Shown here piece by piece: positions 30,834 to 35,000 of a DNA stretch of 64,000 nt (positions are counted from its first letter, which is position 1; each line of letters begins with the position of its first letter). The position numbers and the translations under genes are program-made. The stretch is taken from sequence record KT454806; one strand, 5' to 3'. Source of the DNA: Escherichia phage SUSP2. The notes under the pieces are model-generated. The model had not been told where the DNA came from and searched no databases. It saw only the letters and a list, made by a program, of their open reading frames with translations.

Positions 30834-30848
30834 ATAAGTATTATAAGA

Positions 30849-30869
30849 GGCTCCTACGGGAGCCTTTTT
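30849..30869 (+). terminator. rho-independent terminator
   Basis: GGCTCC-tacg-GGAGCC plus TTTTT. Confidence 0.7.
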
Positions 30870-31222: not shown

Positions 31223-31386
31223 AATTAATCATGTCATTTGGTGGCCTGATTGTAATTGGATACCTTCTGGCTAAACACTTCTTCGGTACAGAAGAGTGTG
31301 AAGATTGTGATGGTACAGGTCTGGTAGGTTATGGGTGTTGTCCTTATTGTGGTGGAACTGGAAAGAAACATAACGGAAACAGTTGA
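31204..31386 (+). CDS. small membrane-anchored zinc-finger protein (DnaJ-type CxxCxGxG repeats)
   Basis: Hydrophobic N-terminus then CEDCDGTG..CPYCGGTG. Confidence 0.4.
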   Translation: MQGYWLELIMSFGGLIVIGYLLAKHFFGTEECEDCDGTGLVGYGCCPYCGGTGKKHNGNS

Positions 31387-31411
31387 CAATCGGTGCAGAG
31401 TTCTTTAAAGT
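31383..31411 (+). promoter_or_regulatory. sigma70-like promoter candidate upstream of rIIA-like gene
   Basis: TTGACA, 17 bp, TAAAGT. Confidence 0.4.
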
Positions 31412-31444: not shown

Positions 31445-33811
31445 ATGCGCATGGTAAATGACCACGCAGAGGTGATTAAGAGTTCATCTTCATTAGAAAC
31501 TTCTCAGGCGTCTATCACGATGACTCCTGAAATGTTCAGCCTGTTAAGTTCAGGTGTTTACACTTTTAAAGAACGTGCGGTAATCCGTGAGTTGTCATGT
31601 AATGCTGTAGACACCCACAAAGAAGCTGGAAAAGAGAATGTGCCGTTCCGTGTACATTTGCCAACTCGTTTTGACCCATACTTTGAAGTCCGTGACTTTG
31701 GTACTGGTCTGACTCACGAGAAGGTCATGTCTTTGTACCTGAACTATGGAGCTTCTACTAAGAATGACTCGAATGACTACATCGGTGCTATGGGTATCGG
31801 TTCAAAGTCACCTTTTGCAATCGCACAGTCATTCACCGTGTCCAGTTACGTAGATGGTGTGGTTAACAAGTACTCTGTATATCTTGAGAATGGTATTCCT
31901 CAAGTTACTAAACTGACGACCAACCCGACTACCGAACCAAATGGTTTAGCAGTTCGTGTTGCAGTAGCTGACCACCGTATTCAGAAGTTCCATGAAGAAG
32001 CGAGCAATGTATTCTCTTACTTCAAATTGAAACCAGAATGCAACGTAGAATACCGTGATATTCTTAGCGAGATGACTACCATTGTCCGTGAAGATGGTGT
32101 TTACGATGCGATGAAGTATAAAGAGAACTGGCGTTCAAGCAATAACCAGACAAATTTCAACGTTGTCATGGGTAACATTGCTTATCCTGTTGACTTAGGA
32201 GACTTGCTTGGTGCAGAGTTCACCAATGTTCTTCCTACATTCTTCCGTAACGCTGTAGACCTTGTTAACATCTACATGCCGATTGGTTCAGTAGCTATCG
32301 CTGCATCTCGTGAAGCATTGCAGATGAATGAGACCACCAAGAAAGCAATTACAGATGCAGTTAAAAAGATTACTGCAACAATTGTAGAAGATGTGGTAAA
32401 ACGTATTGCTGACGAACCAACTCTGGTAGATGCAGCACAGGCTTATGCAGACTTGCGAGCTAACTCTCGTGAAATCTTCCAGCATGTGTTTACCCGTCTT
32501 GAGTGGAATGGTCAGAACTTAAGTAACCTTGAGCAGAAACTTTTAAAGATTCGTCAAGGACAATTAAGTAATCAAGATGGTACTCCAAAGTTTGCGACTG
32601 ATGATTCAGGAGCTTTGGTTGTTGATAAGAGTGGTAATCATATTCCAGTGATTGGCAATCTTTATGAACCTGTTGCATACTTTAAGTACAGCCAGCTTGA
32701 GAACAAAATTCGTGCTACTTCAGCGTTGTACACTCAGGAGGGTGCAAACTTCAGTATCTTCGGTGCAATGAGTAAGAACAAAATGTCTAACTATTTGTTC
32801 CTTATCAATGACCGTCGAAACAAAAATGGTACTGAAAAGACTGTAGGACGTAATCAGATTATTCGTGGTGCTTGCCGTGACCGTGAAAATGAAGAACCAA
32901 ACTTCCGTCGCTATAATGGTATTGTATACGTCTTCTCTGATGAGAAAGAGTTAGATGATTTTATCAGTCTTCACATGCTTGATAAGAGTCTGTTGACGAT
33001 TGTTAAAATGTCTGACAAAGAGCATCACTATGTGAAGCGTACCGTGACTCGTGGTGTTGTAAAACTCTACAAAGCTTCTGTACATGAGCATGGAGTGTCC
33101 TATGGAGAAGTGAAAGAAAACTTTGATGATATTGAAGAACCTCAGTATTATATCAAGGCTCAAAGTGATGAGGTTCTTGGTGGTATATTTAACTGTTCTC
33201 CAGAGGCGGCTGCTAAGGTATCTGCACGTTTAACTGGACAGTCAGTTTATGTGTTCCGTAAAGCAAACTGGAAGAAAATTCCTGAAGACTGGTTAGAAGT
33301 AAATCAGCAAGTCTTCAAAGATTCTATCACTGACATTCACTGGATTGAGTTTAACCGTTTTGTAACTCGTGAATGGTGTAGTTCAAACTGTGATATCACT
33401 GATAAAGGTGTTATTGCCAGAACGTTCCAGTTTGGTGATAAGAAGTGCTCAAGAGGTTATGTCTACAGTGCTGACTACAGCAAACGTATCTTCTTGGAAG
33501 GGAACGAAGAGGCTGTAGAAGCAATGTTTGGTAAGCTGGCTTATGTCGCTTCACCAATTGCTTATAAGGACGTTACAAGTGTTCTGCATGACTTACAACG
33601 CTTGACAAGAGCCAAGAGTAAGGTACACTCTGCAATCTACAATGCAAGAGAACGTATTAAGCAGAAACTGAGTGTGTACTTCACAGCACGTAAAGCAGAA
33701 AACTTCTTGCTTTCTAACTTAGACTGGAATAAAGTAAGTCCTGTTGAAGTTGGTCAGTTCTTAGGATTTGATGTTAAGTGCATCCCTGAAGGAACTCAGG
33801 CTTTTGATTAA
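31445..33811 (+). CDS. rIIA: rIIA-like protein with N-terminal GHKL (Bergerat-fold) ATPase domain
   Basis: 788 aa; N-box ELSCNAVD, G1 box RDFGTGL, G2 box GAMGIGSKS; size and domain order as T4 rIIA. Confidence 0.6.
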   Translation: MRMVNDHAEVIKSSSSLETSQASITMTPEMFSLLSSGVYTFKERAVIRELSCNAVDTHKEAGKENVPFRVHLPTRFDPYFEVRDFGTGLTHEKVMSLYLNYGASTKNDSNDYIGAMGIGSKSPFAIAQSFTVSSYVDGVVNKYSVYLENGIPQVTKLTTNPTTEPNGLAVRVAVADHRIQKFHEEASNVFSYFKLKPECNVEYRDILSEMTTIVREDGVYDAMKYKENWRSSNNQTNFNVVMGNIAYPVDLGDLLGAEFTNVLPTFFRNAVDLVNIYMPIGSVAIAASREALQMNETTKKAITDAVKKITATIVEDVVKRIADEPTLVDAAQAYADLRANSREIFQHVFTRLEWNGQNLSNLEQKLLKIRQGQLSNQDGTPKFATDDSGALVVDKSGNHIPVIGNLYEPVAYFKYSQLENKIRATSALYTQEGANFSIFGAMSKNKMSNYLFLINDRRNKNGTEKTVGRNQIIRGACRDRENEEPNFRRYNGIVYVFSDEKELDDFISLHMLDKSLLTIVKMSDKEHHYVKRTVTRGVVKLYKASVHEHGVSYGEVKENFDDIEEPQYYIKAQSDEVLGGIFNCSPEAAAKVSARLTGQSVYVFRKANWKKIPEDWLEVNQQVFKDSITDIHWIEFNRFVTREWCSSNCDITDKGVIARTFQFGDKKCSRGYVYSADYSKRIFLEGNEEAVEAMFGKLAYVASPIAYKDVTSVLHDLQRLTRAKSKVHSAIYNARERIKQKLSVYFTARKAENFLLSNLDWNKVSPVEVGQFLGFDVKCIPEGTQAFD

Positions 33812-33824
33812 AAATAGTTTGACA

Positions 33825-33840
33825 GGGGCTGCAAAGCCCC
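33825..33840 (+). terminator. hairpin terminator candidate embedded in a promoter-like spacer
   Basis: GGGGCT-gcaa-AGCCCC, flanked by TTGACA (33819-33824) and TAGAAT (33842-33847). Confidence 0.4.
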
Positions 33841-33890
33841 TTAGAATACGAACCACTAAGTAATATTAACTAACAAGAGAGAGTAATAAG

Positions 33891-35000
33891 ATGACTACTA
33901 AAACTAAAGCACAAATCGACGCAGAAATCTATGCACTGGTTCAGGAAGGTAAACTGACCAAAACTGCCATTGCAATGAAGTATAACACTTCTACTCGTTC
34001 CGTTGGTCGTGCTGTAGAACGTCACGAAGCAACACTGAAAGGTGCTAAGAAAGCAACTTCCAAGCCAGCTAAACAGACTCTGAAACAGATTGCAAAGTCT
34101 GCTAAGAAGACGTCTACTAAGCCAGTTGCCAAGGCTGTTAAAGAGGCAGTGAAGAAAGAACCTGTTAACCAACTGCACGAAGCAATGCAGAATGGTAACC
34201 AGATTGAGTACATGATTACTGGTGATTCTGTTATCATGACTTTCGGTGCAGATTCTGAAATCGTTGAGTCTACCCATCCGAACTATAAAGAAATCGTGAT
34301 GGCTGTTGTAGGTGGTGAGTACAAGAAAGCTTTCGAACTGATGAACATTCGTAAGTCTATTGAGAACTTCACTCAGGGTGCAATCACCATCAAAGGCGAT
34401 AACCTGTACTACGGTGCTGTTCAAATGCGTTCCACTCTGGTAGACCGTATTCTGGATATGATGAAAGCTGGCGACGATGGCTTTAAACGTCTGGTAGCAT
34501 TCTTCGAAAAACTGATGGAAAACCCATCCAAAGATTCTGTAGAACAACTTTGGGGATTTGTATCCCACCTTGACGTTGAGATTGATGAAGAAGGTTATAT
34601 CATCGGTTGGAAGAAAGTTACAACTCGTGGTGGTAAGCTGTTTGACTCCCGTACCTGCAAAGTTCCTAATGATTTGGGTAACGTTGTAGAGATGCCACGC
34701 TGGATGGTTGATAATGACCGTACAGTAACTTGCTCTCAAGGTCTGCATGTTGGTGCTTGGGATTATGTCCGTAGCTTCTCTGGTGACACTATCCTGAAAG
34801 TTCGTGTACATCCACGAGACGTTGTATCTGTACCAACTGACTACCAAGATATGAAAATGCGAGCTTCCCGTTATGAAGTTGCAGCAATTGTGAATGGTCA
34901 GCGTCAGGTTGTCAAAGAGTGGGATGGCAAATCTGAAGCACTGCATGTTGTTGTAGGCACTGCTGGTGAACTGATTTCTCAGCGTAAACGTGAAATCTAA
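33891..35000 (+). CDS. rIIB: rIIB-like protein
   Basis: 369 aa immediately after rIIA-like gene; assignment by position and size, N-terminal pattern weakly resembles rIIB. Confidence 0.45.
   Translation: MTTKTKAQIDAEIYALVQEGKLTKTAIAMKYNTSTRSVGRAVERHEATLKGAKKATSKPAKQTLKQIAKSAKKTSTKPVAKAVKEAVKKEPVNQLHEAMQNGNQIEYMITGDSVIMTFGADSEIVESTHPNYKEIVMAVVGGEYKKAFELMNIRKSIENFTQGAITIKGDNLYYGAVQMRSTLVDRILDMMKAGDDGFKRLVAFFEKLMENPSKDSVEQLWGFVSHLDVEIDEEGYIIGWKKVTTRGGKLFDSRTCKVPNDLGNVVEMPRWMVDNDRTVTCSQGLHVGAWDYVRSFSGDTILKVRVHPRDVVSVPTDYQDMKMRASRYEVAAIVNGQRQVVKEWDGKSEALHVVVGTAGELISQRKREI

Follow-up and report, generated by a model that had tools for sequence, protein, structure and literature searches.

A rIIA-rIIB gene pair with a probable counter-defence role in a Suspvirus-like coliphage

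In the classical literature on T4, both rII proteins are placed at the inner membrane and the rII phenotype is tied to membrane energetics. T4 can do without its rII genes in hosts that lack RexAB, and insertions in rII become depleted when the host carries RexAB. In five phages including SUSP1 (NC_028808), knockdown of RIIA or RIIB has no effect on hosts without Rex; in SUSP1, knockdown of either gene reduces plating efficiency only on cells with lambda RexAB (PMC11879866). Plating on QatABCD cells falls 1e4-1e5-fold when Bas63 g85 or g84 (rIIA/B) is deleted, and is rescued by complementation (PMC11482910). The PhageMaP study states that Bas63 g85/g84 are '>80%' homologous to T4 RIIA/B, a figure that sits oddly with the 32-35% identity between T4 and the pair described here. 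On its own, RIIB is toxic and sets off a CARD-gasdermin system (PMC10312443).

The window (the whole 64,000-nucleotide stretch of DNA that was analysed) comes from a Suspvirus-like coliphage (Ounavirinae, Felix-O1-type) with 97% DNA identity to phage EP1. A preliminary description of this DNA had proposed that two adjacent genes encoding 788 and 369 amino acids (aa) resemble rIIA and rIIB. Both open reading frames are present (Table 1), and on sequence similarity we identify them as orthologues of T4 rIIA and rIIB, that is, as the rIIA-rIIB module of this phage. rIIA is located directly 5' of rIIB on the same strand, with a gap of 79 nt, and this order is also found in T4, SUSP1 and two further contigs (L006 and L007) and is kept in distant phages. 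The assignment is correct but already known, as close relatives have been both annotated and experimentally tested. What the present analysis adds is a predicted domain architecture from structure models, a sigma-70-like promoter for each gene and a putative closing terminator.

Table 1. Features of the rII region, with positions in the window and the evidence for each
Feature	Position	Strand	Evidence
Terminator-like hairpin after NAMPT gene	30845..30868	+	10-bp stem, 5 GC pairs, T-run
Sigma-70-like promoter 5' of rIIA, TTGACA-17-TAAAGT	31383..31411	+	10/12 consensus match
rIIA gene, 788 aa	31445..33811	+	phrog_612, T4 rIIA BLASTP, hhalign; annotated rIIA in EP1, phiSUSP1, mistaenkt
rIIA Bergerat-fold (GHKL) ATP-binding domain, aa 26-190	31520..32014	+	Motif positions, HATPase_c_3 match
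rIIA N-box; G1; G2	31589-31612; 31691-31711; 31784-31810	+	Motif positions
rIIA second domain, aa 191-325	32015..32419	+	With GHKL domain, aligns to transducer/middle domain of Hsp90, MORC, Topo VI-B, MutL
rIIA lineage-variable C-terminal part, aa 326-788	32420..33808	+	17-24% mean identity across homologues
Sigma-70-like promoter for rIIB, TTGACA-17-TAGAAT	33819..33847	+	11/12 consensus match
rIIB gene, 369 aa	33891..35000	+	phrog_609, T4 rIIB BLASTP, PF26926 on homologues
rIIB three-helix helix-turn-helix, aa 6-53	33906..34049	+	Sigma-70 region 4 / LuxR / DeoR-like
rIIB disordered lysine-rich linker, aa 55-95, pI 10.4	34053..34175	+	pLDDT <50, composition
rIIB family-defining C-terminal domain, aa 96-369	34176..34997	+	Conserved core
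Intrinsic-terminator-like hairpin, starting 14 nt past rIIB stop codon	35014..35037	+	10-bp stem, 5 GC pairs, T-run

The profile-HMM search that had been proposed as a check bears out the rIIA reading: residues 1-766 of the 788-aa protein match positions 1-712 of 725 in phrog_612 (E 2e-180, 603 bits). Comparison with T4 rIIA gives 32% identity over aa 23-320 by BLASTP (E 3e-39) and a probability of 100% over 399 columns by hhalign (E 2.5e-56). The part alignable to T4 is restricted to the first 320-480 residues, with BLASTP ending at aa 320 and hhalign reaching aa 478. Against the PDB, a single-sequence search with rIIA returned nothing meaningful (only an annexin, E 0.08) and a profile search only Hsp90-family N-domains, the nearest being TRAP1/Hsp90 (E 3e-5); no solved rII structure was found by either sequence or profile searches. 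PADLOC reports a weak GHKL-level match of rIIA to TmtA (30 bits) and no match for rIIB; by this comparison the pair is no known defence protein.

The solved structures nearest to rIIA are TRAP1, MORC2, SMCHD1, Topo VI-B and MutL. Together with the TRAP1/Hsp90 sequence matches and a weak NCBIfam HSP90 match, these could be taken to mean that the protein belongs to another GHKL family (Hsp90, MORC, topoisomerase or MutL) and that its neighbour is unrelated to rIIB, a reading with practically no probability left to it. As no rIIA structure has been solved, structural neighbours necessarily come from other families; moreover, these matches are confined to the ATPase module that the families share and stay far under family cut-offs, whereas the rIIA profile match of 600 bits runs end to end and the neighbour is unambiguously rIIB. 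The pattern that the preliminary description had named as contradicting it, a best profile match to an unrelated GHKL family beside a gene other than rIIB, was looked for and is not what we found. Models for Hsp90, sacsin and restriction-enzyme GHKL proteins score 15-39 bits against cut-offs of 50-550. In the case of Hsp90/HtpG, the NCBIfam HSP90 match has 39.4 bits (cut-off 455) and covers aa 31-134 only, with no Pfam HSP90 match at E <= 0.1. No signature domains of type II topoisomerase B subunits, MutL or MORC were detected: the sole Pfam report at E <= 0.1 is HATPase_c_3, just under its cut-off, with no Toprim, MutL_C or DNA_mis_repair, and structural similarity to topoisomerase, MutL and MORC is confined to an ATPase module of 240-330 residues. 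rIIA also differs from a histidine kinase, in which a CA domain would follow DHp/HisKA and the best structural match would be to kinases.

The three GHKL motifs described earlier for the rIIA N-terminus are present (N-box, aa 49-56; G1, aa 83-89; G2, aa 114-122) and intact, and their motif residues are identical to those of T4 rIIA. The GHKL domain is the best-conserved block of the protein (59%), and its catalytic residues are invariant. A low-pLDDT loop (aa 102-111) lies between G1 and G2, the place of the ATP lid in GHKL ATPases. A conserved S288-R289-E290 motif is found in the second domain. Structure models show the N-terminal part as a predicted two-domain clamp ATPase module of the Hsp90/MORC/MutL type, followed by a variable C-terminal half that is nonetheless modelled confidently (pLDDT mostly >85).

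The 369-aa gene, previously assigned to rIIB by position and size only, can be recognized as rIIB from its own sequence (phrog_609, E 2.3e-86), and four more rIIB PHROGs match its product. BLASTP aligns aa 11-337 to residues 13-310 of 312 in T4 rIIB with 35% identity (E 7e-61). Of the 120 homologues listed, all except one carry PF26926 (Phage_T4_rIIB), including one that is 99% identical (P0001). Family membership was shown via PHROGs, T4 BLASTP and these precomputed Pfam marks; our own Pfam search used a copy without PF26926 and gave noise-level matches only. In the PDB, a single-sequence search with rIIB found nothing and a profile search only weak helix-turn-helix regulators. When the rIIB model was compared with the Foldseek viral library, all named matches at E <= 1e-10 were rIIB or rIIB-type protectors, except one 'Transposase'.

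Structure models show rIIB as a predicted sigma-region-4-like helix-turn-helix joined by a disordered lysine-rich linker to an apparently phage-only C-terminal domain. In approximately 38% of aligned homologues, the helix-turn-helix is missing or does not align. The linker differs in length among relatives (indels of 4-6 residues relative to phiSUSP1), and the mistaenkt repeat_region falls here. Conservation is 58% in the core (aa 191-337), and the C-terminal core has 18 invariant columns, including C281, G284, L285, H286, K322, R324 and Y328.

The hairpin after the NAMPT gene is the upstream boundary of a transcription block that contains two small ORFs, rIIA and rIIB. From the consensus matches we infer that rIIA and rIIB each have their own sigma-70-like promoter. 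The rIIA promoter-like sequence is identical in EP1 and mistaenkt, and its TTGACA is also present in phiSUSP1. The rIIB promoter is near-invariant in EP1, mistaenkt and phiSUSP1, even though rII-region DNA of phiSUSP1 is only about 79% identical, and its spacer is filled by a 7-bp GC-rich hairpin (33824-33841, loop GCAA; RNA fold z -2.2). The terminator-like hairpin after rIIB is predicted to close the rII unit.

From the sequences and, for the role, by analogy with the characterized relatives, it is highly probable that the pair is rIIA/rIIB and that its role is counter-defence: the genes would be dispensable on naive hosts and needed against abortive-infection (Abi) systems like lambda RexAB. 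A rIIA-rIIB counter-defence module of a Suspvirus-like coliphage is also, as a whole, the best explanation of the locus and a very probable one. Going by the database label 'RIIA/RIIB lysis inhibitor', they would instead be true lysis-timing genes that regulate the holin-endolysin pathway, in keeping with the PHROG category 'lysis', the product names and a spanin pair that the phiSUSP1 annotation places approximately 2 kb downstream. We consider this very improbable, as the label is a historical one (rapid lysis is ascribed in the T4 GenBank notes to 'effects of specific prophage'), both genes have sigma-70-like promoters, the proteins lack holin/antiholin features, transmembrane segments and signal peptides, and knockdown gives no phenotype on Rex-free hosts (PMC11879866). 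A genuine holin-type lysis inhibitor was rejected as a candidate.

Counter-defence could also be a side effect of a primary housekeeping function, for example if the pair organized replication or transcription complexes, or if it adjusted the phage programme as a transcription factor. In the classification of Iyer et al. 2021 (PMC7824862), rIIB counts as a specific transcription factor, and rIIA is a GHKL protein whose C-terminus varies; the resemblance of the rIIB helix-turn-helix to sigma region 4, LuxR and DeoR fits this reading, as does the occurrence of the pair across T4-like, N4-like, PhiW-14-like and cyanophage lineages. The lack of any knockdown effect in five phages on Rex-free hosts (PMC11879866) argues against it, as does the dispensability of T4 rII without RexAB, such conditional genes being typical of counter-defence, and we regard a primary housekeeping role as improbable.

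For the mechanism of counter-defence, we tentatively propose a working model in four steps. Host RNA polymerase would read rIIA and rIIB, each from its own sigma-70-like promoter. rIIA would be a soluble or peripheral GHL/MORC-type ATPase in which ATP binding leads to dimerisation and clamp closure, with lineage-specific contacts made through its variable C-terminal half. rIIB would bind nucleic acid with the helix-turn-helix at its N-terminus and the basic linker, and its conserved C-terminal domain would bind rIIA. The complex would then remodel or mask whatever the Abi sensors read, either a DNA-protein intermediate of the phage or a state of the cell, so that a membrane-depolarising or nuclease effector is never set off. 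Since rII counters both RexAB and QatABCD, which differ in composition, action upstream of the effectors is the easier explanation. We count in favour of the mechanism the invariant GHKL residues, the rIIB helix-turn-helix and basic linker, the lack of transmembrane segments, the RB43 fusion (see below), the conserved gene order and the promoters and terminator. Counted against the model are the sub-cut-off Pfam GHKL match and the helix-turn-helix missing or unaligned in part of the family. RexA DNA-binding mutants, including ones with opposite properties in vitro, lose exclusion without exception (PMC11077077); DNA binding is therefore not clearly the sensing step, which also speaks against the model. 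The toxicity of RIIB alone and its triggering of CARD-gasdermin suggest, furthermore, that RIIB does more than hide a signal and disturbs the cell itself.

The inner-membrane placement of the T4 proteins and the link to membrane energetics favour action at the effector or membrane level over trigger masking. Here, rII proteins peripheral at the inner membrane would directly block or compensate for a depolarising effector (a RexB-type channel, possibly QatB) and not its trigger. The T4 rIIA and rIIB GenBank notes read 'membrane integrity protector', the RB43 fusion protein is annotated 'membrane-associated', RexAB works through membrane depolarisation, and a membrane-depolarising QatB was proposed by the PhageMaP authors (PMC11482910). 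However, transmembrane and strongly hydrophobic segments are lacking from both proteins (maximum KD19 of 1.43 for rIIA and 0.80 for rIIB), a GHL/MORC-type clamp ATPase with a helix-turn-helix partner is typical of action on DNA or client proteins, and RexAB and QatABCD are unlike in composition; we judge membrane-level action to be somewhat unlikely. A further form of the masking proposal is that rII is a nucleic-acid-directed machine and not a membrane protector, in which an ATP-driven rIIA clamp of the GHL/MORC type, recruited by rIIB with its helix-turn-helix and basic linker, remodels phage DNA-protein intermediates and leaves the RexAB/QatABCD sensors untriggered. This is doubtful; if true, the conserved architecture would give a testable mechanism for the roughly 70-year-old rII puzzle, and the window pair would offer a convenient second model alongside T4, coming from a tractable group of phages that infect K-12.

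For genome annotation, these results confirm a routine rIIA/rIIB assignment in a Suspvirus-like coliphage and leave current understanding unchanged. The Ounavirinae pair retains all of the features for which a mechanistic rII model must account: the intact GHKL catalytic set, the Hsp90/MORC/MutL-type two-domain clamp module, the rIIB helix-turn-helix and basic linker, the apparently phage-only rIIB core domain and the RB43 fusion. For phage therapy and host-range prediction, the presence of rII suggests that the phage is able to plate on Rex+ lysogens of the lambda type, and possibly on strains with QatABCD. By analogy with T6, the phage may also be sensed via RIIB by CARD-gasdermin-type systems.

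Among known systems, the GHL/MORC-type clamp ATPases (Hsp90/TRAP1, MORC2/3, SMCHD1, Topo VI-B, MutL) have marginal sequence similarity to rIIA (E 3e-5 at best). Their partner domains are not found in rIIA by Pfam (no Toprim, MutL C-terminal, CW zinc finger or Hsp90 middle/C-terminal family matches), and the rIIA C-terminal part appears peculiar to the rIIA family. T4 rIIA (NP_049616) and rIIB (NP_049889) have the same order on one strand, and T4 rIIB is homologous to the window protein over nearly its whole length, helix-turn-helix included. In contrast, the C-terminal ~300 residues of rIIA cannot be aligned to T4, the neighbouring genes differ, the T4 proteins are shorter (725 versus 788 aa for rIIA; 312 versus 369 aa for rIIB) and the lysine-rich linker is mostly missing from T4 rIIB. 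The RB43 RIIA-RIIB fusion (Q56C47, 1049 aa) is a single polypeptide, whereas the window has two genes with an internal promoter in the 79 nt between them; the rIIB-like region of the fusion is a structural match to the window rIIB model (E 1.3e-23). The phrog_609 profile has 1055 positions, a length that fits the RB43 fusion, and matches both window proteins, with which this natural fusion is consistent.

SUSP1 (genus Suspvirus) encodes RIIA (YP_009199332) and RIIB (YP_009199333) proteins that are 73% and 86% identical to those of the window over their full length, with differences of 2 aa in rIIA and 4 aa in the rIIB linker. The two phages share gene order, with Prs, NAMPT and two small ORFs upstream and a phrog_600 protein and polynucleotide kinase downstream, as well as the rIIB promoter-hairpin. 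Their DNA is only approximately 79% identical, and an HNH endonuclease gene lies between Prs and NAMPT in SUSP1 but not in the window. Closest of all are EP1 (OR892555), Salmonella phage PC79-13, EcSzw-2, EcSzw_1 and mistaenkt, with 93-97% DNA identity over the 3.5-kb region. The rIIB coding sequence of mistaenkt is 1128 nt rather than 1110 nt, the linker being of different length, but in all five phages the pair is labelled rIIA/rIIB in GenBank and consists of essentially the same genes as in the window.

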